A stretch of 55,537 bases of DNA, from positions 1 through 55,537 of the forward strand of contig CAZWMG010000012.1 in assembly GCA_964634945.1 (NCBI GenBank), written 5' to 3'. Source of the DNA: an uncultured Planctomycetia bacterium (GTDB lineage: Bacteria > Omnitrophota > Gorgyraeia > JABMRG01). Numbering within the stretch: position 1 is the stretch's first letter; the number at the start of each line of letters is the position of its first letter. This document shows, piece after piece, positions 7,053-48,414 of this stretch. The notes under the pieces were generated by a model, which saw only the letters and a list, made by a program, of their open reading frames with translations, was not told where the DNA came from and did no database searches. Position numbers and translations under genes: made by a program.

Positions 7053-8138
7053 TTATCTCCTATGTTTTGCTATATTCAACAACAACCCTACGCTTGCCAG
7101 ACTGTAGACAAGTGAGGTGCCTCCATAGCTTATAAATGGTAAAGGCATTCCTTTTGTAGGTATCGAACCTGTAACCGCCGCAATATTTATTATAACCTGT
7201 AAGGCCAGCATCGTAACTAGTCCAAAAGCCAGAAACTGGCCAAATAGATCCCTTGCTGAATACGCTATCCTAAAACCTATCCATATAAACACCGCAAAAA
7301 GCGCAACGATACCCAATGTACCAACAAGTCCAAGCTCCTCACCAATTATGGAAAAAATGAAATCTGTGTGTGCCTCAGGCAGATAAAATAATTTCTGCTT
7401 GGAATGCGCGAGCCCTACACCAAAAAGCCCGCCTGTGCCCATAGCTACCATTGACTGTATTATCTGAAAGCCTGACCCCTTTGGGTCGTTCCAAGGGTTC
7501 CAAAAAGCCATTACCCGCTTTATGCGATAGGGCTTCATCACTATGAGTCCTATGACGGCAAGCAAGCCAGGCACCATCATAATACCTAACTGCTTTATAT
7601 CGACTCCCGCGATAAACGCCATAATAATTATCAGAAGGGCTAAAGCTACAGCGGTCCCAAGATCAGGCTCCAGCAATATAAGTAAGATACAGACACCCAA
7701 TGCTATCATAAGGGGCAAGAAACCATAAAGAAAATCCTTGATCTCTGATTGCTTTCGGGCAAGTACATCCGCCGCGTAAAAGACAAGTGCCATCTTTGCT
7801 ATCTCTGAAGGCTGAAAACTGATTGAACCTAAACTTATCCAGCGCCTTGCGCCACCGGCACTCCTGCCTACACCAGGTATAAATACCGCTACAAGCAGTA
7901 GTATGGAAAAGATCAAAAACGGTTTTGTAAAATTCTTAAGCTTGCCATAATCAAAACTCATAAGGGCCACCGCGCCTATGATGCCGAGAAGCATAAAGAT
8001 AAGGTGCCTTTTTAAAAAATAGGCACTACTTCCATAAGATTCATAAGCAAAAGCAGAGCTTGAAGAGTATATCATCACTGTGCCTATGGCAAGCAAAATC
8101 GTTGTAACTAAAAAAAGGTTTATACGTATCTGTCTCAT
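7053..8138 (-). CDS. ftsW: peptidoglycan glycosyltransferase FtsW
   Basis: SEDS motifs RW..G..FQPSE, EPDLGT, LPEAHTDFIF and PFISYGG; dcw position. Confidence 0.95.
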   Translation of the reverse strand: MRQIRINLFLVTTILLAIGTVMIYSSSSAFAYESYGSSAYFLKRHLIFMLLGIIGAVALMSFDYGKLKNFTKPFLIFSILLLVAVFIPGVGRSAGGARRWISLGSISFQPSEIAKMALVFYAADVLARKQSEIKDFLYGFLPLMIALGVCILLILLEPDLGTAVALALLIIIMAFIAGVDIKQLGIMMVPGLLAVIGLIVMKPYRIKRVMAFWNPWNDPKGSGFQIIQSMVAMGTGGLFGVGLAHSKQKLFYLPEAHTDFIFSIIGEELGLVGTLGIVALFAVFIWIGFRIAYSARDLFGQFLAFGLVTMLALQVIINIAAVTGSIPTKGMPLPFISYGGTSLVYSLASVGLLLNIAKHRR

Positions 8139-9583
8139 GTTTTCATCGTGCGTCGTGCGTCGTGCGTATTGCGTAATCTCAATACTGCCCGTTGAAATGC
8201 GTCACCACGGTCCTTATAATTGGAAAACATGTCAAAGCTCGCACACATGGGGGAGAGCAAAACCGTATCCCCTGCTACAGCTTTATCCCTGCATATAGCA
8301 ACAGCCTTATTCATAGAGGAGGCTTCGAGAATATTTACAGCGCCCACAAGATCATCTTGTATCTTCTTCTTGGACTCTCCTATCAGTACCATGGATATTA
8401 CTTTCTTCTTTACCGTCTCTCTTATAACCTTATAGTCACTGCCCTTATCTCTTCCACCCGCGATAAGTATGACACGTTCATCAAATGAGTCCAATGCTGC
8501 TTTACAGGCATCAACGGTCGTTGCCTTGGAATCATCTATATATCTTACTCCATCAATGACAGAGACCTGCTGAAGGCGATGGTCAAGCCCTTTAAATAAT
8601 GTAAGCGCGGTTCTGATATCTTGCAACGCTGCCCCCGCAAGATATGAACACAAACTGGCAGCGAGTGCATTTGATATATTATGCTTTCCAATCAGCTGCA
8701 TATCATTTACAGAGCATATCCTTAACTCTTCTGAATCGATGTTGAGCACAAGTTCATCTTGATTAAAATAAGCTCCTCTGACTTTTTTCTTTACGCTGTA
8801 ATAATATACATTAGCGCCAGGTTCACGGCCAAGTGCTTTTATCTTATTGTCATCGTAATTTAAAACACAAAAATCATGGCTATCTTGATTTCTATATATA
8901 TTCTTCTTGGATGTAAAATAATCAATAAGATCTCCATGCCAATCCAAATGGTTCTGTGTAATATTTGCTATAAGGGCTATCTTCGGCTTAAACTTATCTA
9001 TTCTTTTAAGCTGAAAAGAGCTAACCTCTAAAACTACGGGTTGATCTTGGGCTATAGAAGAGACCTCACCGGAAAAAACCCTCCCTATATTGCCGCAGAC
9101 AATCGGGCTCCTGCCTGATTGCTCAAGCATTAAACCTATAAGCGTAACGATAGTGCTTTTTCCATTTGTACCTGTAACCGCTATAATAGGCCCCTTACAT
9201 AACCGATACGCTAACTCGATCTCGCTTATTACAGGTATGGATTTTTTTTCTGCTATGCTCACTACAGCGGAATTATCCTTAACACCAGGACTAACAACGA
9301 GAAAATCGGAATCTTCTACAAGCGCCTGAGTGTAACCACCAAGCTCTACCCTAATATCTTTCGACTCTAGGCGCTTAGCGATCTGTAGTAACTCACTGTT
9401 GGCATTTGAATCCGTGCAATAGACAAAAGCGCCTCTTTGCTTAAGTATCAAAGATGCGGACTGACCGCTGATCCCTAAACCAACTACTATCACTTTTTTA
9501 TTCTTTAGATTAAAGGGGGCACCCCTAAGTACGTTATCAACTTGGTTTTTCATATTTTTATTAAGCACGTCTTTGGAATTCAT
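8135..9583 (-). CDS. murD: UDP-MurNAc-L-Ala--D-glutamate ligase, with a repeat-derived 24-aa N-terminal leader
   Basis: Motifs VVGLGISG, SPGV, GTNGKST, EVSSFQL, DDSKAT and LSPMCASFD. The start codon lies inside the 9511-9623 element. Confidence 0.96.
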   Translation of the reverse strand: MNSKDVLNKNMKNQVDNVLRGAPFNLKNKKVIVVGLGISGQSASLILKQRGAFVYCTDSNANSELLQIAKRLESKDIRVELGGYTQALVEDSDFLVVSPGVKDNSAVVSIAEKKSIPVISEIELAYRLCKGPIIAVTGTNGKSTIVTLIGLMLEQSGRSPIVCGNIGRVFSGEVSSIAQDQPVVLEVSSFQLKRIDKFKPKIALIANITQNHLDWHGDLIDYFTSKKNIYRNQDSHDFCVLNYDDNKIKALGREPGANVYYYSVKKKVRGAYFNQDELVLNIDSEELRICSVNDMQLIGKHNISNALAASLCSYLAGAALQDIRTALTLFKGLDHRLQQVSVIDGVRYIDDSKATTVDACKAALDSFDERVILIAGGRDKGSDYKVIRETVKKKVISMVLIGESKKKIQDDLVGAVNILEASSMNKAVAICRDKAVAGDTVLLSPMCASFDMFSNYKDRGDAFQRAVLRLRNTHDARRTMKT

Positions 9584-9623
9584 AAATTTTTGTATTTTTC
9601 TATTCTTAGGGATGTCCCCTTTA
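9511..9623. mobile_element. ~113-bp inverted-repeat cassette (MITE/REPIN-like), copy 1, overlapping the murD start
   Basis: Imperfect terminal inverted repeats taaagggggcacccctaag / cttagggatgtccccttta. A 24-nt core is identical to the copy at 47238-47345. Confidence 0.7.
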
Positions 9624-9665
9624 GGACCGTTTAGTTGTAAGGATTAAGCAACAAACCTGATCCTT

Positions 9666-9800
9666 AAATTCTAAATCCTAAGCTCTAAACTCTAAACAAT
9701 ATCAAATTACCAAAATTCAAATGCTCAAAACAAAAGTTTTGAATTTTGAAAATTAGAATTTTGAATTTGTTTAGTATTTAGATATTAAAGTTTAGTATTT
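9666..9800. repeat. ~135-bp imperfect palindrome built from converging 7-mer units
   Basis: Left arm aaattct-aaatcct-aagctct-aaactct-aaac, centre tcaaaac-aaaa-gttttga, right arm gtttagtatttagatattaaagtttagtattt. Confidence 0.75.
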
Positions 9801-9810
9801 ATTTTCTCCC

Positions 9811-9831
9811 TTTTCAGCCGAAGGCTGAAAA
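9811..9831. repeat. 21-bp hairpin TTTTCAGCC-GAA-GGCTGAAAA (mini-palindrome or possible terminator)
   Basis: Perfect 9-bp stem with a 3-nt loop, flanked by T/A runs. Confidence 0.6.
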
Positions 9832-9943
9832 ATGTTATAAGATTTTAGTTTTTATAATTTTTTAACTTTTGTGACCGTATTCCTTTTTACTCTTTACTTG
9901 CACCTTATGCCCTGTGCCTTTTTCTTTGCCTCTGCCTCTACCC

Positions 9944-11035
9944 TTATCTAAGCTTTAAGGTCATAAGTGTAAAGAGTGCTAATATGGCAGCTACTATCCA
10001 AAAACGAACAACTATTTTTGACTCGGGCCACCCCTTCATCTCTAAATGGTGATGAAATGGTGCGCACAAAAATACCCTTTGGCGCCTTATTTTAAAAATA
10101 ACAACCTGCAATATCACAGATATGGCTTCAAAGACAAATATCCCACCTACTATAAGAAGTAACATCTCTTTCTTTATGCAGCAAGCGACAACGCCTATCC
10201 CGCCACCCAAAGCGAGAGATCCTACATCACCCATAAATACATTAGCGGGATATGAATTAAACCAGAGAAAACCTAAACCTGCTCCTACGATCGCGGCGCA
10301 ATATATAGCGAGTTCGCCGGTACCTGGAATATAATTTATAAACAAGTAACTTGAAAGTTGGCTGTTTCCTACAACGTAACTTATTATTGTGTAAGCTAAG
10401 GCGACCATTACCATGCATCCTATAGCCAAACCGTCAAGCCCATCTGTCAAATTTACCGCGTTAGATGTACCTACGACAACAAATGTAACAAAGAATATGT
10501 AAAGTATACCGGCATTACAGGTTAAGTTTTTGAAGAAAGGAAAATATATACTGCTCCCAACATTGGAGTCAAAGAAAAGTATGATACCTATTATAAGGCC
10601 TAGGGTGATTTGTCCGAAAAATTTAGTTTTTTTGCTAAGCCCGTTACTTTTTTTCGCGACAAGTTTTATGTAATCATCTATAAAGCCTACCGCACCAAGC
10701 CATATAGTAGCGAATATTGTTATAAGTATATAATGATTATCCAAGCGCGCCCATAGAATGGTGGCGAATAATATAGATCCTAGCATGATCAGCCCCCCCA
10801 TTGTGGGGGTACCTTCTTTATCCTTGTGGTTAGAATATATGCCCGGAACCTCTTCTCTGGAACGTACCCGCTCACCAATATTAAACCTCTTAAGCAATTT
10901 TATAATATACGGCCCAAAAATAATACTTACCAAAAATGCGGTGATAATCGCCCCTACCGCCCTGAATGTTATGTAGCGGAATACATTAAATCCGGAGAAT
11001 ATCTCTTTTAGTGAATAGAACAGGTGGTAAAGCAA
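9944..11035 (-). CDS. mraY: phospho-N-acetylmuramoyl-pentapeptide transferase
   Basis: Motifs KEGTPTMGG, GFIDDY, NAVNLTDGLDGL, FMGDVGS and APFHHHLE. Confidence 0.97.
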   Translation of the reverse strand: MLYHLFYSLKEIFSGFNVFRYITFRAVGAIITAFLVSIIFGPYIIKLLKRFNIGERVRSREEVPGIYSNHKDKEGTPTMGGLIMLGSILFATILWARLDNHYILITIFATIWLGAVGFIDDYIKLVAKKSNGLSKKTKFFGQITLGLIIGIILFFDSNVGSSIYFPFFKNLTCNAGILYIFFVTFVVVGTSNAVNLTDGLDGLAIGCMVMVALAYTIISYVVGNSQLSSYLFINYIPGTGELAIYCAAIVGAGLGFLWFNSYPANVFMGDVGSLALGGGIGVVACCIKKEMLLLIVGGIFVFEAISVILQVVIFKIRRQRVFLCAPFHHHLEMKGWPESKIVVRFWIVAAILALFTLMTLKLR

Positions 11036-11062
11036 AACTATTACTCCTTGGTTTATTACTTA

Positions 11063-11130
11063 GTTATTGCGTTATTGGGTTATTGAGGTATTGAGTTTTG
11101 AAAGTTTCCAAACGCCATAACGCATAACGC
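11063..11130. repeat. 8-mer-array palindromic repeat, copy 1 (murF-mraY junction)
   Basis: Units gttattgc/gttattgg/gttattga followed by cataacg units. The core 11095-11123 matches 44731-44759 at 27/29 nt. Confidence 0.75.
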
Positions 11131-12489
11131 CTACACGCATACGTGCGCTGATAACTTCTCGGCTATCTCCTCCATTTTCATAGACCTAGAGCCTTTTATC
11201 AGGACTACGTCATCCTTGTCAATTATATTTCTTAGAAAAGTGGGTATACCTACCTTATCTGTGAATACTTTTACCCTATTTTTATTCATACCGCTATCGA
11301 TCGCGCCCTTAGCGATAAACCGGGCCTTATCCCCCACTACAATAAGAATGTCTGATGCATCTATTCTGGCAAGCAATATTCCGCAATCATAGTGAAATTT
11401 ATCTGAATTTTCACCAAGCTCTAACATGTCCGCGCAACATACTATCTTTTTTCCCTTAGTCTTATATCTCTTAAGCGCGTCAATCGCATATTCAAATGAT
11501 ATAGGGTTGGCGTTATAAGCGTCGTTTATTATGATAAAATCAGCGCAATTAAGGACTTCCATTCTCATAGAAGCGCTCTTAAAATTCTCAAGCGCATCTT
11601 GCGTTTTATTATCAGTGAAAAGTGACGCTGTCGCAATCGCAGCTAACGCATTATATACATTATGTCTGCCCAAAAGCGGTAATTTGATCAAATCGCCATT
11701 AAGAAAAAATTCCATGCCTTGCGCGGTTTGTTTTACATTTTCTGCCTTGAAATCAGCTTTTTCGTTTCTGATACCAAAATTTACAGTCTTTATGTGATTG
11801 TAGTTCTTTTTAAGAAGCATTTCATCATCACAGTTGCGTACCCAGACACCACATTTATCAAGAGACTCTACCATAGCGATCTTTTCTCTAAGAACTCCTT
11901 CTTTGGTGCTAAGCCCTTTAAGATGCGCAAAGCCTATATTCGTCGTTATAACAACGGTAGGCCCAAGGATATCGCTGTTATACTCTATTTCACCGGGGGT
12001 GCTAGTTCCAACTTCTATTACAGCTATCTTCTCATCCTTTAATCTTAATAGAGCTTTTGCTACGCCAATCTTATTATTAAGATTACCTTGAGTTTTTAGT
12101 ACGGCCAACTCTCTACCCAGTATATGACTAAGCATATCCTTTGTTGTTGTCTTGCCGTTTGACCCTACAATACCTATGACCGGAATGTGAAACTTTCCCC
12201 TGTGCGCCTTAGCGAGATCACTTAAGGCCCTTAGTGCGTCCTTTACCTTTATTACGGGAATACGAGCTGAAACACTATCACCTTTTTGCGCTATTATCGC
12301 ACAAGCCCCTTTTTTAACAGCTTCATCGACAAACTCTGTCCCATTGTAACTTTCACCTTTTAATACTAGAAAAAGATCGTTCTTATTTATACAACGTGAA
12401 TCAGTAGATATAGACCTTATCCGCGTATTATAACTACAATCAACACCTTCGGCACCGGTCACTCTGATTATATCATTTATTGTAAACAC
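11131..12489 (-). CDS. murF: UDP-MurNAc-tripeptide--D-Ala-D-Ala ligase
   Basis: Motifs STDSR, GSNGKTTTK, NDAYNANP, DMLELG and KGSR. Confidence 0.96.
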   Translation of the reverse strand: MFTINDIIRVTGAEGVDCSYNTRIRSISTDSRCINKNDLFLVLKGESYNGTEFVDEAVKKGACAIIAQKGDSVSARIPVIKVKDALRALSDLAKAHRGKFHIPVIGIVGSNGKTTTKDMLSHILGRELAVLKTQGNLNNKIGVAKALLRLKDEKIAVIEVGTSTPGEIEYNSDILGPTVVITTNIGFAHLKGLSTKEGVLREKIAMVESLDKCGVWVRNCDDEMLLKKNYNHIKTVNFGIRNEKADFKAENVKQTAQGMEFFLNGDLIKLPLLGRHNVYNALAAIATASLFTDNKTQDALENFKSASMRMEVLNCADFIIINDAYNANPISFEYAIDALKRYKTKGKKIVCCADMLELGENSDKFHYDCGILLARIDASDILIVVGDKARFIAKGAIDSGMNKNRVKVFTDKVGIPTFLRNIIDKDDVVLIKGSRSMKMEEIAEKLSAHVCV

Positions 12490-20300: not shown

Positions 20301-20334
20301 TTATTTATCCTCTTATGAAACTTAAGCAAATATA

Positions 20335-20925
20335 GAAGCAGGCGCTTATAAGCCGAGTTCTGTTAGTGACTCACAAGTTAGGCAACCCTTATAAATAATA
20401 AGTACCCTAACTTGCATGCCGGAATTAATACTTAAGGACGCGATAAATAAGAGCGTCCAGTGTATCCACTCCTTCGTCACCAGATGGCCATCTATCTAGC
20501 CCTGTCATTACTGACAGGGTCGTCTTCCTACTTAAAGGAAAGTAGCGACCTAACCCGCTCCGCTTACTGAGGAACGGATCATTCCTATGGCGGAGCCTAT
20601 TTGGTCTTGCACCACGTAGAGATTGCCGCGTTTCACATCACGATTAAATGCATCTGTAATATAAGAGAGATTGAGCCGCTAGGCTCATATGCTCCCATGG
20701 TAGAAACATTTATCGATACTCGTCTCTGTGGCTCTCATTTTCCCGTTTCACTACGAGAAAATGGCCTCAGGCGATAAAATTATCGCAAGAGACAATCCTC
20801 ATGAATTATTCCAAATTCATGGACGGGCATTACCCGCTACGTTATCCTATGGAGCCCGGACTTTCCTCCCCCATAGTTTTACTTCGTAAAGCTTAACATG
20901 GGGGCAGCCATCAAGCGCCTGCTTC
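20335..20925 (-). ncRNA. rnpB: RNase P RNA, unusually long (591 nt)
   Basis: P1 GAAGCAGGCGCTT...AAGCGCCTGCTTC, GAGGAAAGTCCGGGCTC, GCCACAGAGACGA, GCAAGACCAAATAGG, AGATAGATGGCCATC and ACAGAACTCGGCTTA. Confidence 0.95.
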
Positions 20926-22229: not shown

Positions 22230-22252
22230 GTAAAATGAGCAGATAACTTATG

Positions 22253-22313
22253 CCTGCCTGCCGGCAGGCAAGGATCTAAACACTAGATTCTTCGGCTTAC
22301 GCCTCAGAATGAC
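22253..22313. repeat. CCTGCCTGCCGGCAGGCA palindrome abutting a REP-like arm (AGATTCTTCGGCTTACGCCTCAGAATGAC)
   Basis: Near-identical to the 20-mer at 28063-28082; the adjacent arm forms the hairpin attct-tc-ggc-ttac-gcc-tc-agaat. Confidence 0.65.
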
Positions 22314-22462: not shown

Positions 22463-22510
22463 CAAGACCGGTTCTCAAGCACAACCGATCGTGCTCAAGA
22501 ACCGGTCTTG
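22463..22510. repeat. 48-bp palindromic repeat, copy 1
   Basis: caagaccggttctcaagcac-8 nt-gtgctcaagaaccggtcttg; second copy at 29435-29486. Confidence 0.85.
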
Positions 22511-28009: not shown

Positions 28010-28195
28010 GTTTCGTTGTAATTGAAGCAGGACCTTGTTGATGCGAGCGGGCCCGCCTGCCGCCTGCCTGCCGGTAGGCAGGGCGAGGCAGGCATGGTTC
28101 GATCTGATTCAGTTCTATGCGAGAGCGAGCATCAACGTGGAGTAAAATTTTCACGCCGGGGAAATTTTACGTTCCTGTGCAAATTGCTACGAAAC
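28010..28195 (+). repeat. ~185-nt structured repeat (putative ncRNA or MITE), copy 1
   Basis: Nested helices shared with 31776-31957 showing compensatory changes; carries a 20-bp insertion. Confidence 0.75.
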
Positions 28196-29434: not shown

Positions 29435-29486
29435 TTTAAGACCGGTTCTCAAGCACAAGTGGTCGTGCTTGAGAACCGGTCTTAAA
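29435..29486. repeat. 52-bp perfect palindrome, copy 2, 5 nt after the hppA stop (may act as a terminator)
   Basis: tttaagaccggttctcaagcac-aagtggtc-gtgcttgagaaccggtcttaaa: 22-bp perfect stem. Confidence 0.85.
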
Positions 29487-31775: not shown

Positions 31776-31957
31776 GTCAGCTTTTGAGTGATTGAGCAGA
31801 ACCTCTTTATTGCGAACGGGCCCGCCTGCCGGCGAGGCAGGCATGGACCACTGCAGTTTTACTTCGTTAAACTGCAGTGGGAGTGAGCAATAAAACGGAG
31901 CAAAATTTTCTCGCAGGGAAAAATTTTGCGTTTCTGCGAAATTACTCAAAAGTTGGC
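31776..31957 (+). repeat. ~182-nt structured repeat, copy 2
   Basis: 18-bp closing helix gtcagcttttgagtgatt / aattactcaaaagttggc (three G-U pairs on the + strand) and inner helices shared with copy 1. Confidence 0.75.
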
Positions 31958-44706: not shown

Positions 44707-44774
44707 ATTATTGGGTTATTGGGTTATTGGGTTTTGAACGTTTCCAAACACCATAACGCTATAACGCGACAACC
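44707..44774. repeat. 8-mer-array palindromic repeat, copy 2 (rpsP-trmD junction)
   Basis: (gttattgg)n followed by ataacgc units; core 27/29 identical to 11095-11123. Confidence 0.75.
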
Positions 44775-46326: not shown

Positions 46327-47310
46327 TTACTTATCCTTATATTGTGCCGCTATAACACGTTCTACATTATTTAGATCTTTAGAGATTTTTATATTACTAA
46401 AACAACCTGCATCCTTAATCGATTTCATTACGTTATCGCTTAAGTCATCGGCAAGCTCTAAAACCAAGAAGCCTCCTTTTTTTAAGAAAGCCGGAGAGGC
46501 CTCTACAATACGACGATAAAAACTCATGCCATCGTTACCGCCATCTAACGCCTTTAACGGATCCCTCTTTACCTCATCAGGAAGACTATCAATCTCGCAT
46601 GATCTGATATATGGGGGATTAGAGACTATTACATCAAAGGTTTCTCTAAATTTTTCAGGGATATCTAGAAGATCGGCCTTTATAAACTCCATGTTCTCAT
46701 TTACGGAATTCAAGCCGGCATTTTTAAATGCTATTCCTAGAGCCTTGTCTGAAATATCAGAACTTGTTATTTTACACTGGGTTAAGGCTTTTGTCAATGA
46801 GATACCAACATTACCGCTACCTGTACATAGGTCAAGGATTCTAAGCTTCGAACCATTGTCTCTAAGGCGCAATCTCGATGCCGCCTCAATTGCGATATCA
46901 ACCAACACCTCAGTCTCAGGCCTTGGTATGAATACACCTTCTCTGATAAAAAGGTCATTACCATAAAAACATGTTTTGCCGATTATATGCTGTAAAGGCT
47001 TGCCATCTATCCGGGCAGTTATCATCTTCTCAACAGACTCAAGATGTTCCGGATTTAATGCAATTTCATCCAGATACAGATCTATTACGCGACATCCTAT
47101 CACCTCACTCAATATGACCTCTGCATTAATGCGACTTGAGGTTACCCCTGCCTTTTTAAGTCTGAGTGCGAGCTCAAGAACAAGACTATTTAGCCTTGAT
47201 AATTTTTGATGTTCTTTTGCTCTCAAGGGGACGGTCCTAAAGGGGGCACCCTTGAGCGCAATATTATCTCGTTTTTTTATATCTTTGGTAAGCATATTTA
47301 TAAAATTCAT
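46327..47310 (-). CDS. prmC: release factor glutamine methyltransferase PrmC/HemK, with a repeat-derived N-terminal leader
   Basis: Motifs PLQHI, FIPRPETE, LDLCTGSG, SNPPY and ALDGG; follows prfA. Confidence 0.94.
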   Translation of the reverse strand: MNFINMLTKDIKKRDNIALKGAPFRTVPLRAKEHQKLSRLNSLVLELALRLKKAGVTSSRINAEVILSEVIGCRVIDLYLDEIALNPEHLESVEKMITARIDGKPLQHIIGKTCFYGNDLFIREGVFIPRPETEVLVDIAIEAASRLRLRDNGSKLRILDLCTGSGNVGISLTKALTQCKITSSDISDKALGIAFKNAGLNSVNENMEFIKADLLDIPEKFRETFDVIVSNPPYIRSCEIDSLPDEVKRDPLKALDGGNDGMSFYRRIVEASPAFLKKGGFLVLELADDLSDNVMKSIKDAGCFSNIKISKDLNNVERVIAAQYKDK

Positions 47311-47345
47311 AAATTTTTGTATTTTTCAATCTCAAGGGTGTCCCC
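47238..47345. mobile_element. ~108-bp inverted-repeat cassette, copy 2, overlapping the prmC start
   Basis: Inverted repeats ggggcacccttgag / ctcaagggtgtcccc. A 14-nt left end and a 24-nt core are identical to the murD copy. Confidence 0.7.
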
Positions 47346-47349
47346 GCAT

Positions 47350-48414
47350 TTAGAGCCTTTCTAGCCTCGCCTTCTTATCGGCAGCTATAAGACCGGTTAT
47401 AATCTCATCGAGATCACCATGAAGCACGGCTTCTAATTTATGCAGCGTCAGGCCTATCCTATGATCAGTAATTCTCCTGTCCGGAAAATTATACGTTCTT
47501 ATCTTTTCGCTTCTGTCACCGGAACCTACCTGGCTCTTTCTGTCATTAGATATTTTAACCGCATGCGCCTGTCTTGCCTTGTCAAAGATGCGTGAACGTA
47601 AAACCTTCATGGCCTTAATCTTATTCTTAAGCTGTGAGCGCTCATCCTGGCATGTAACGACTATATCCGTTGGGATATGAGTTATACGTACAGCGGAGTC
47701 TGTTGTATTTACGCCTTGACCTCCATTCCCACTCGAACGATATACATCAACGCGTATATCCTTTGGATCGATACTAACATCTACCTCCTCTGCTTCAGGC
47801 AATACCGCGACAGTTACAGCGGATGTGTGAACTCTACCCTGTGATTCTGTTGACGGTACACGCTGAACTCTATGCGTACCACTCTCATACTGAAATTTTT
47901 TGTAAACACCGTTGCCTTCAATAGATAGAACTACTTCTTTTATGCCGCCCGCTTCTGAACTTGATGTGTTCATCACATCAACCTTCCATCCTCTCTCTTG
48001 CGCGTACTTAGAGTACATTCTAAAGAGATCCGCCGCGAATAGAGACGCTTCTAATCCTCCTGTTCCGGCACGTATCTCCATGATTACATTGCGATCAGCA
48101 TCAGGGTCATCTTCGATCAGCATCTGTTCCAACTCGATCTTAATCTTATCAAGCTTGAGAGTAAGTTCTTCTATCTCTGCCTGTGCTAATTCAATAAAAT
48201 CCGGTTCGTGTTTTTCGTTAAGCATAGACTCAAGCTTGGACTTCTCCTGTTCACATAAGGTATAATCGTCATACCGCTGCACCATAAAAGACGTGGAAGA
48301 AAGCTCTTTAGCGTATCTTTGATAAAGAGCCCTATCCTTTAAAACTTCATGATCAGCTAAAAGCCTCTTAAGCTCTTCAGCGCGTTGTTTCTTTTTTGCC
48401 AGTGATTCAAACAT
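47350..48414 (-). CDS. prfA: peptide chain release factor 1
   Basis: Motifs EIRAGTGG, HRVQRVPST (PxT), GGQ and RTYNF. Confidence 0.97.
   Translation of the reverse strand: MFESLAKKKQRAEELKRLLADHEVLKDRALYQRYAKELSSTSFMVQRYDDYTLCEQEKSKLESMLNEKHEPDFIELAQAEIEELTLKLDKIKIELEQMLIEDDPDADRNVIMEIRAGTGGLEASLFAADLFRMYSKYAQERGWKVDVMNTSSSEAGGIKEVVLSIEGNGVYKKFQYESGTHRVQRVPSTESQGRVHTSAVTVAVLPEAEEVDVSIDPKDIRVDVYRSSGNGGQGVNTTDSAVRITHIPTDIVVTCQDERSQLKNKIKAMKVLRSRIFDKARQAHAVKISNDRKSQVGSGDRSEKIRTYNFPDRRITDHRIGLTLHKLEAVLHGDLDEIITGLIAADKKARLERL

Follow-up and report, generated by a model that had tools for sequence, protein, structure and literature searches.

The murD gene of an uncultured Planctomycetia bacterium (GTDB lineage Bacteria; Omnitrophota) appears to have lost its native start codon to a short mobile repeat with inverted ends, here called the cassette, and its reading frame now begins at an ATG inside this cassette. 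We analysed contig CAZWMG010000012.1 (C12) of assembly GCA_964634945.1, which at its full length of 55,537 nucleotides is called the window; the genome (G000) comprises 1.78 Mb in 31 contigs with 40.7% GC. About 25 copies or fragments of the cassette family were catalogued in G000, including those at murD and prmC. Our overall reading is that the end-dimer repeat of a RAYT/TIRYT-type transposase (TIRYT, TIR-associated tyrosine transposase; TIR, terminal inverted repeat) replaced native starts and that MurD is most likely made with the leader encoded by the cassette, a reading to which we assign a probability of about 0.7. As judged from sequence comparison, the element, its link to a transposase, its position at gene junctions, the empty alleles in relatives and the replaced starts are established.

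Cassettes at murD and prmC

The original prediction, made from the letters of the window, held that murD and prmC begin inside the same cassette, and the observations behind it were all verified. The string taaagggggcaccc is present twice in the window (9511-9524 and 47238-47251), the 24-mer aattcataaatttttgtatttttc is identical at 9577-9600 and 47304-47327, and the minus-strand ATGs of both cassettes (9583-9581 and 47310-47308) lie 72 nt from the left end in window numbering. The encoded leaders are MNSKDVLNKNMKNQVDNVLRGAPF for murD and MNFINMLTKDIKKRDNIALKGAPF for prmC. In a repeat scan of the window the two copies showed 77% identity over 93 ungapped nt, and blastn within the genome gave 77% over 109 nt (E 4.7e-11). 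The element is longer than first thought: it covers 9511..9630 (minus strand; outer end ACGGTCC) at murD and 47229..47345 (minus strand) between the prfA stop codon and the core of prmC. Positions 9605-9630 and 47231-47256, which belong to the inverted ends, are 85% complementary. Both copies are predicted to fold into a terminal stem of ~18 bp around an AU-rich loop that contains the AUG (-29.4 and -34.1 kcal/mol; z-scores against shuffles of -3.3 and -3.15).

The upstream (5′) inverted end of the murD copy (9605..9630, minus strand) is a truncated long form, ACGGTCCTAAAGGGGACATCCCTAAG, in which the first GGGG of the full end is absent. The cassette ATG (9581..9583, minus strand) lies within the loop of the predicted hairpin and is codon 1 of an open reading frame (ORF) of 482 aa (8135..9583, minus strand), which matches the murD model TIGR01087 with 420.9 bits, model position 1 falling on residue 30. 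The downstream (3′) inverted end (9511..9529, minus strand) is the short form CTTAGGGGTGCCCCCTTTA and is translated as L-R-G-A-P-F, so that F24 stands in the place of the native Met. As the original prediction stated, the stretch from the cassette to MurD's GxG motif has no ATG. An in-frame GTG (V31; 9491..9493, minus strand), which it also mentioned, is the sole canonical murD start outside the cassette before GLGISG.

At prmC the cassette ATG (47308..47310, minus strand) opens an ORF of 327 aa (46327..47310, minus strand; TIGR03534, 239.9 bits). The second in-frame ATG encodes M6, and a public gene call for this protein begins there (322 aa). The downstream long inverted end (47229..47256, minus strand) is read as K-G-A-P-F-R-T-V-P and is followed directly by an in-frame TTG (L29; 47224..47226, minus strand), an alternative prmC start with an AGGA from the inverted end 8 nt ahead of it. 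The PrmC models place the start further downstream, near residue 37 (hemK_fam) or residue 42 (PrmC_N). Right after the prfA TAA, another ATG opens a frame of five codons (M-R-G-H-P; 47332..47349, minus strand) that runs into a TGA in the left end of the element; possibly this is the stranded native start of prmC.

A search of the whole window against Rfam returned RNase P RNA and one tRNA and no match to a repeat family. A scan for promoters and terminators found no more matches than in shuffles in the cassette region of murD, and two promoter-like and one terminator-like consensus matches, slightly over shuffles, in the prmC region.

Native start codons in relatives

To compare N-termini we used 18 of 30 relatives for MurD (loci returned, L014 excluded) and 13 relatives for PrmC (the row of L026 was disregarded). 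In 17 of the 18 MurD relatives a Met stands where G000 has F24, seven residues ahead of the first-strand V/I in KKV/I, as had been predicted. The cassette leader was absent from all 18 and from the PrmC relatives inspected. The native murD ATG was thus overwritten. By-eye alignment from the flank ACTAAAC, which G001 and G002 have in common with G000, suggests that ~18 nt including this ATG were replaced. The empty alleles that the original prediction proposed to look for in relatives were therefore found, with the native start present.

Nine genes of G000 have their first in-frame start inside an element, and all nine copies lie at the 5′ end of the gene. The native start is gone in seven of them, prmC included, and three have no canonical start left before the conserved core. 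These three are uvrB, thiF and a U32-family gene. In thiF about 21 native residues were replaced, and the match to the ThiF model begins at model position 22. At murD, where the native start is gone, the outside GTG lies seven codons past the native Met; at prmC, where it is probably gone, the TTG follows the element directly. The native start of priA is also gone, the canonical outside starts being GTG/TTG 4-6 codons into the conserved strand, and so is that of a TIGR03960 radical-SAM gene, which has a TTG five codons in. Two genes have retained their native ATG, tgt at the end of the element and mfd 20 nt past it.

The replacement is visible in the protein N-termini. UvrB begins with MEKFKIKSDF, MSKKFIIKSDF or MKFNLKSEF in relatives and reads ..GVPPF|KIRSDF in G000. 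The U32-family protein reads MMKRVELTAPAG in G001 compared to ..KGVP|RVELTAPAG in G000, and the radical-SAM protein M[KN]PVELTEEF in relatives compared to ..KGVP|VKVELTEEF in G000. The empty sites of the U32 gene in G001 and G003 hold a terminator hairpin, AAGAAGGA and the ATG. This gene is fused to a family element in G002 (L054) as well as in G000 (C1:63050-63162), with different ATGs and junctions.

Replaced starts were also observed in another genus. In G008, where 20 of the 22 contigs with motif matches were sampled (C70 and C254 were left out), two of 11 paired elements carry the starts of an N-acetyltransferase gene and of dapE, and the G000 orthologues of both genes have native N-termini. 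From the sequences compared, the start take-over at these two G008 genes occurred independently. The proposal that the initiation region is replaced was thereby borne out at murD and several conserved genes in two genera.

The repeat family and its transposase

A 16-nt motif of the family, CCTAAAGGGGRCRCCC, has 25 matches in G000, and its reversed control has none. Full copies have the ends GGGGACGGTCCTAAAGGGGACACCCCTGAGCAC, and some ends are of a short form beginning AAAGGGG. Two inverted ends of 19-33 nt flank an AT-rich core of 50-170 nt, of which there are at least two types; the elements are 104-231 nt long, and paired inverted ends are present at at least 16 loci. The right end is free of stop codons in all three frames. 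GTAG precedes GGGG only in some copies of type B (CGTAGGGG), the others having CTCAGGGG, CTTAGGGG or CTCAAGGG. As in a generic MITE (a miniature transposable element with inverted repeats), the length falls within 70-300 bp, the inverted repeats are terminal, a transposase is lacking, and the repeat is multicopy and akin to an autonomous unit. No direct repeats that would represent target-site duplications were seen when the flanks of the copies were inspected by eye; to our knowledge, Y1 elements produce none.

The original prediction took the cassette for a non-autonomous element and suggested searching for a RAYT gene, and a transposase flanked by the same ends was indeed found. A single unit of 839 bp (G000, C2:171447-172285) carries the inverted ends of the family (at C2:171447 and C2:172285) around an ORF of 210 aa. 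This ORF matches Pfam Y1_Tnp (PF01797) over residues 13-124 with 43.1 bits (cutoff 23; E 5.3e-11), and its best and only NCBIfam match is REP_Tyr_transpos (NF047646; E 4.2e-19). Its translation contains HFH and YIERNPV, which we take to be the HUH motif and, with the Y of the latter, the catalytic tyrosine. No second Pfam domain was detected in the protein at E<=0.001, although a weak or divergent helix-turn-helix (HTH) is possible. The ORF runs through the right end of the unit and stops 13 nt past it.

The left ~55 nt of the short cassettes, ATG included, align to the left end of the unit (52/59 in the uvrB copy; 39/50 over the left ~50 nt of the murD copy), and an ATG that the unit has at positions 51-53 of its left end is the homologue of the murD cassette ATG. 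On the right, the alignment is weak beyond the inverted end. The cassette family is, on these alignments, derived from the two ends of an 839-bp Y1 (HUH) unit of RAYT/TIRYT type, and the cognate transposase presumably mobilised the end-dimers.

G000 contains six RAYT-like transposase paralogues. A search with the transposase in a collection of genome contigs, own genome excluded, gave one distant match with 28% identity. Clear orthologues were identified in two genomes: that of G008 shares 69% identity and has the same flanking ends, and that of G007 (59%) contains one stop. Motif matches number 35 in G008, five in G002, three in G007, one in G001 and none in seven other genomes of the family; the cognate transposase thus co-occurs with the repeat in G000, G008 and G007.

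Position and orientation of the copies

Twenty-one of the 25 copies lie between co-directional ORFs. When the A-rich strand, which is the sense strand of the transposase, was used to set the orientation, 20 of these could be oriented, 16 in sense and four in antisense, and two of the four antisense copies are fragmentary. For 12 of the 16 sense copies, the distance between the upstream stop codon and the left end is between -14 and +6 nt. In three cases the TAA inside GGTCCTAAAGG is itself the stop of the upstream ORF (C3:7972-7985, C4:24439-24441 and C2:160670-160672). For the gene before priA, the TAA supplied by the element adds ~4 residues (RDYL-GGRS* compared to RDYLK* in G003).

Where relatives lack the element, the corresponding junctions measure 0-6 nt or the genes overlap, for instance TAAaATG at uvrB in G003 and the ATGA and GTGA overlaps at priA in G010 and G009. 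A surviving intergenic insertion must touch a start at such junctions. The distribution suggests to us that insertions survive only at stop/start junctions in the compact G000 genome. Either selection or strand-specific insertion could underlie the bias in orientation.

Proposed mechanism

In the mechanism that we propose, the RAYT/TIRYT-type transposase would mobilise miniature, non-autonomous end-dimer repeats, and copies would persist almost solely in tiny spacers between co-directional genes, mostly in the orientation of the genes. The left end would adjoin the upstream stop or provide it through the TAA in GGTCCTAAAGG. The insertion or a later small deletion would lose the native start, and such copies would be kept only if an in-frame ATG of the core takes over. 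In the case of murD, the element and an accompanying small deletion would have eliminated the native ATG along with ~18 nt surrounding it. The murD frame would then run back via the stop-free right end (L-R-G-A-P-F) to the ATG in the AU-rich core, and MurD would be made with a 24-aa Lys/Asn-rich leader from a start without Shine-Dalgarno motif, located in an unstructured loop that is closed by the stem of the inverted ends. The same take-over occurred in uvrB, thiF, the U32-family gene, priA and the TIGR03960 radical-SAM gene, and probably in prmC. Its products would be leaders of 18-24 aa, rich in Lys, Asn and Thr, with the translated end, (K/R)G(A/V)P(F)(RTVP), as their last residues. Of the stem-loop translational control that had been suggested, a predicted fold is what stands, and the hairpin may modulate initiation.

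Possible use of the start codon in the element

The evidence on use of the ATG in the element is indirect. In uvrB, thiF and the U32-family gene there is no outside start, and the genes are conserved and intact; this was counted as indirect evidence for use of the element ATG. In G003, the priA gene (L087) has no inverted ends, and its only start is an ATG plus MTNQKEQQNYKTQ. The leader, with ~10 nt ahead of the ATG, aligns to the family's type-B core (38/51 and 44/60; the score of 35 compares to 20.8 +/- 2.4, maximum 31, for shuffles). Because it is the only start there, the element-like ATG is the working start of this gene. This could reflect a loss of the inverted ends or an earlier capture of the type-B core from that junction. 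The element at priA of G002 is colinear with the G000 copy, without indels, and its 24-codon frame is still open; priA of G001 was excluded because its 5′ region consists of N. A similar reading of the thiF leader in G003 as a decayed element was withdrawn, the best local score being 21 compared to 19.9 +/- 3.2 for shuffles. Identical MurD (482 or 477 aa) and PrmC proteins with leaders are encoded on several contigs of separate assemblies, and a homologue search with MurD residues 1-60 gave matches limited to the cluster of the window itself. Taken together, translation very probably starts in the cassette for at least some genes of the set. For MurD we consider a start in the cassette probable, and for PrmC the balance is even. 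The ORFs of murD and prmC begin in the cassette as predicted; the actual start there is likely, with GTG31 and TTG29 as possible alternatives.

A number of observations weigh against our reading. The transposase scores 68.9 bits with NF047646, under the curated cutoff of 80, and G002 has five repeat matches but lacks a cognate transposase at more than 40% identity. Since transposition by Y1 enzymes is as a rule precise, a further event is required to account for the small deletions seen at the junctions. The U32 insertion is found in G000 and G002 and is absent from G001, the closest relative by identity; the data fit an orthologous as well as an independent insertion. No Shine-Dalgarno motif precedes the cassette ATGs. 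Such starts are ordinary in G000, where a strict motif was found before 34% of first starts and 6% of internal ATGs, and the murD starts native to G001 and G002 are likewise without it, which counts in favour of our reading. In-frame starts inside the element were counted in nine of the 16 sense copies, with 8.3 expected for a random frame, so that this count, which the original prediction proposed as a check, is at chance and evidence neither way. Counting ATG only gives eight compared to 4.0 expected, a comparison that is circular because of selection since insertion. Frames of at least 20 codons exit the element equally in sense (22/26) and antisense (21/26), and the idea that the sense strand is specially open was rejected on these numbers.

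Some of these observations are shared by the explanation that the leaders are an artefact of choosing the longest ORF, the element being an untranslated, transcribed 5′ hairpin and MurD and PrmC being made from GTG31 and TTG29. Both codons are present. The murD GTG lies in an equally A-rich context, so that a MurD starting M-IVVGLG is conceivable, and the prmC TTG has an AGGA, from the outer part of the inverted end, 8 nt ahead of it. The in-frame count at chance and the open frames in both orientations agree with it, and the native ATGs of tgt and mfd survive at or just past the element. Moreover, most REPs (repetitive extragenic palindromes) at the NH2 termini of ORFs have been argued to be extragenic and misannotated (Di Nocera et al. 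2013, PMC3733652; this and the other papers below are cited for their accessible text). However, uvrB, thiF and the U32-family gene, and likewise dapE of G008, are without a canonical outside start before their conserved cores, and for priA of G003 the element-like ATG is the one possible start. As to GTG31, it is a valine codon of ancestral origin (GTG in G001 and G002, ATA in G003) and has no Shine-Dalgarno motif. We therefore regard the artefact as unlikely. Slightly less doubtful is a true preference of the transposase for stop/start junctions, in place of survival of random insertions. The position of 12 of the 16 sense copies beside an upstream stop would fit it, the U32 junctions of G000 and G002 differ at both ends and may represent two hits at one junction, and unrelated palindromic elements occupy the same mraY-murD and prfA-prmC junctions in G001. 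Against this preference, no common target motif was seen by eye in the flanks, native junctions of 0-6 nt or overlapping leave survivors little else to touch, and lagging-strand targeting together with a gene-strand bias could give the orientation bias. The claim that the element lands at translation starts is for these reasons indistinguishable from a survival filter.

Two further explanations are far less probable. The chimera explanation, in which repeats collapsed in this metagenome-assembled genome created the junctions, finds some footing in the 31 contigs and in one copy (C4:24428) that adjoins a run of N; it is nevertheless highly improbable, since the same leader-bearing MurD and PrmC are found in separate assemblies, reading frames are intact and the flanks are unique to each copy. 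Still more remote is the explanation that MurD and PrmC inherited the leader as an ancient N-terminal module and not as mobile DNA, which could be proposed from the MN... start and the GAPF end that both leaders share. This explanation was refuted by the leaderless MurD and PrmC relatives and by the ~25 copies elsewhere in the genome, and the similarity at the DNA level reaches upstream of the ATG into the non-coding inverted ends.

Comparison with known systems

The closest likeness is to TIRtrons, in which TIRYT genes are accompanied by TIR repeat families (Di Nocera et al. 2013, PMC3733652; Quentin et al. 2018, PMC6006769). As far as the accessible text of these papers goes, the cassette family shares with them a RAYT-like Y1 gene with long inverted ends in place of GTAG REPs, 33-nt ends that carry GGGGWSAS (here as GGGGACAC), one end overlapping the 3′ end of the gene, and moderately abundant end-dimers dispersed over the genome (PMC3733652). 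The dimers described here differ in that they enclose a core of 50-170 AT-rich nt from the unit, and in that native starts are overwritten, whereas copies at NH2 termini were mostly judged to be misannotation in that text (PMC3733652). Most TIRYTs of subclass 2.1 are described with a C-terminal HTH (Bac_DnaA_C, HTH_23 or HTH_28; Quentin et al. 2018, PMC6006769); none was detected here at the threshold given above. In the features tested, the cassette family appears to be of the TIRtron/TIRYT kind.

REPINs have been described as extragenic and are shorter than the elements found here, which do not consistently show the GTAG-tagged palindrome of 20-40 nt and become coding N-termini. The resemblance to REPIN-RAYT systems lies in a transposase gene flanked by inverted copies of the dispersed repeat. 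It lies further in one copy of the cognate transposase with tens of non-autonomous, hairpin-forming inverted doublets, in several RAYT paralogues per genome (six in G000) and in a patchy, lineage-linked distribution (Bertels & Rainey 2011, PMC3116915, accessible text).

The parallel with Rickettsia palindromic elements (RPEs) that had been drawn holds as an analogy and not as a family. RPEs are palindromic repeats that are translated in frame, also in essential genes, and NH2 termini decorated by RPE-1 were reported to be expressed (PMC10969869; PMC3733652). In the accessible text of these sources, RPEs are confined to Rickettsia, lie mostly inside ORFs and have no known dedicated transposase. 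Compared by arrangement, the element here replaces the start codon where RPEs add an internal segment; an in-frame insertion that retains the host start is not what was found (copies at the 5′ end in 9/9, native start gone in 7/9).

The IS200/IS605 elements share the Y1 HUH transposase fold (PF01797). Their hairpins are sub-terminal, long inverted ends are lacking, and insertion next to a short target is precise; a target of this kind was not seen here, where small deletions mark the junctions. MITEs of the enterobacterial RU/ERIC type are of different origin and are not known to be linked to RAYTs. They carry ORFs and are found inside genes, and they are similar in being small TIR elements with coding potential that are fused to host ORFs (Delihas 2007, PMC2759123, accessible text). 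In-frame MITE fusions are known in general, and the term 'start codon' does not occur in the accessible text of the 2024 MITE review (PMC10969869). In a literature search, with subscription journals and supplementary files outside its scope, we came across no description of native start codons being replaced by repeats linked to RAYTs or TIRYTs.

Neighbouring genes and other repeats

The murD gene is preceded by mraY (9944..11035, minus strand), with a repeat-rich spacer of 313 nt between mraY and the cassette, and prmC by prfA (47350..48414, minus strand), the stop codon of which lies 4 nt from the left end of the prmC element. The spacers of the cell-wall cluster (9631-9943, 11062-11141 and 44708-44767) contain tandem arrays of TAAACTC (x4.7), TTTTGAA (x4.4), AGTTATTG (x5) and AACGCAT (x4), and a 52-nt repeat is common to 11064-11123 and 44708-44767. 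Similar heptamer arrays lie upstream of murD and uvrB in relatives. At the mraY-murD (L002) and prfA-prmC (L022) junctions of G001 the palindromic elements are of a different, ..GGGGACGGTGG.. type, and the native murD ATG is kept; these two junctions are recurrent landing or survival sites.

A second palindromic family, AAGACCGGTTCTCAAGCAC..GTGCTTGAGAACCGGTCTT, is present in the window (22463-22510 and 29435-29486) and elsewhere in G000 (C7 ~78600, C27:20-68 and C1:85120-85165), and is possibly associated with one of the remaining five RAYT-like paralogues. A GC-rich palindrome, GCCTGCCTGCCGGCAGGCAAGG, occurs three times (22252-22273, 28062-28083 and 31820-31841), with longer shared flanks at 28026 and 31795. 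The RNase P RNA (20333-20923, minus strand; RF00010, 119 bits, full model 1-367) spans 591 nt and has several large insertions, for example one of ~78 nt in place of 13 nt in the model and another of ~110 nt close to the 3′ end.

Significance

In the usual view, repeats of the RAYT/REPIN type are extragenic and do little harm. Where copies lie at the 5′ ends of ORFs, they have been dismissed as annotation errors (PMC3733652, accessible text). Comparison with the empty alleles shows that conserved and essential genes have had their native start codons replaced by the repeat, more than once and in two genera.

A more far-reaching view, which we put forward tentatively and hold to be somewhat improbable as a whole, is that the family acts as a portable cassette for operon junctions: its TAA would close the upstream gene, its core AUG would be independent of a Shine-Dalgarno motif and its right end is stop-free, so that it would colonise zero-length or overlapping junctions and permanently take over the initiation regions of murD, priA, uvrB and prmC. 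If so, junctions would be colonised where an ordinary insertion would not survive, RAYT-type repeats would have a route to create new N-termini, and scattered housekeeping genes could share one hairpin-gated initiation signal. The inverted ends may then decay and the leader stay as ordinary-looking N-terminal coding sequence, a state that priA of G003 may represent.

The genes described here form a natural set of hairpin-framed starts without Shine-Dalgarno motif for studies of initiation. If translation starts in the repeat, start calls in compact, repeat-rich genomes need a check against empty alleles. A mobile element would then be able to rewrite initiation regions while the gene survives, and such elements could seed new N-terminal protein sequence.

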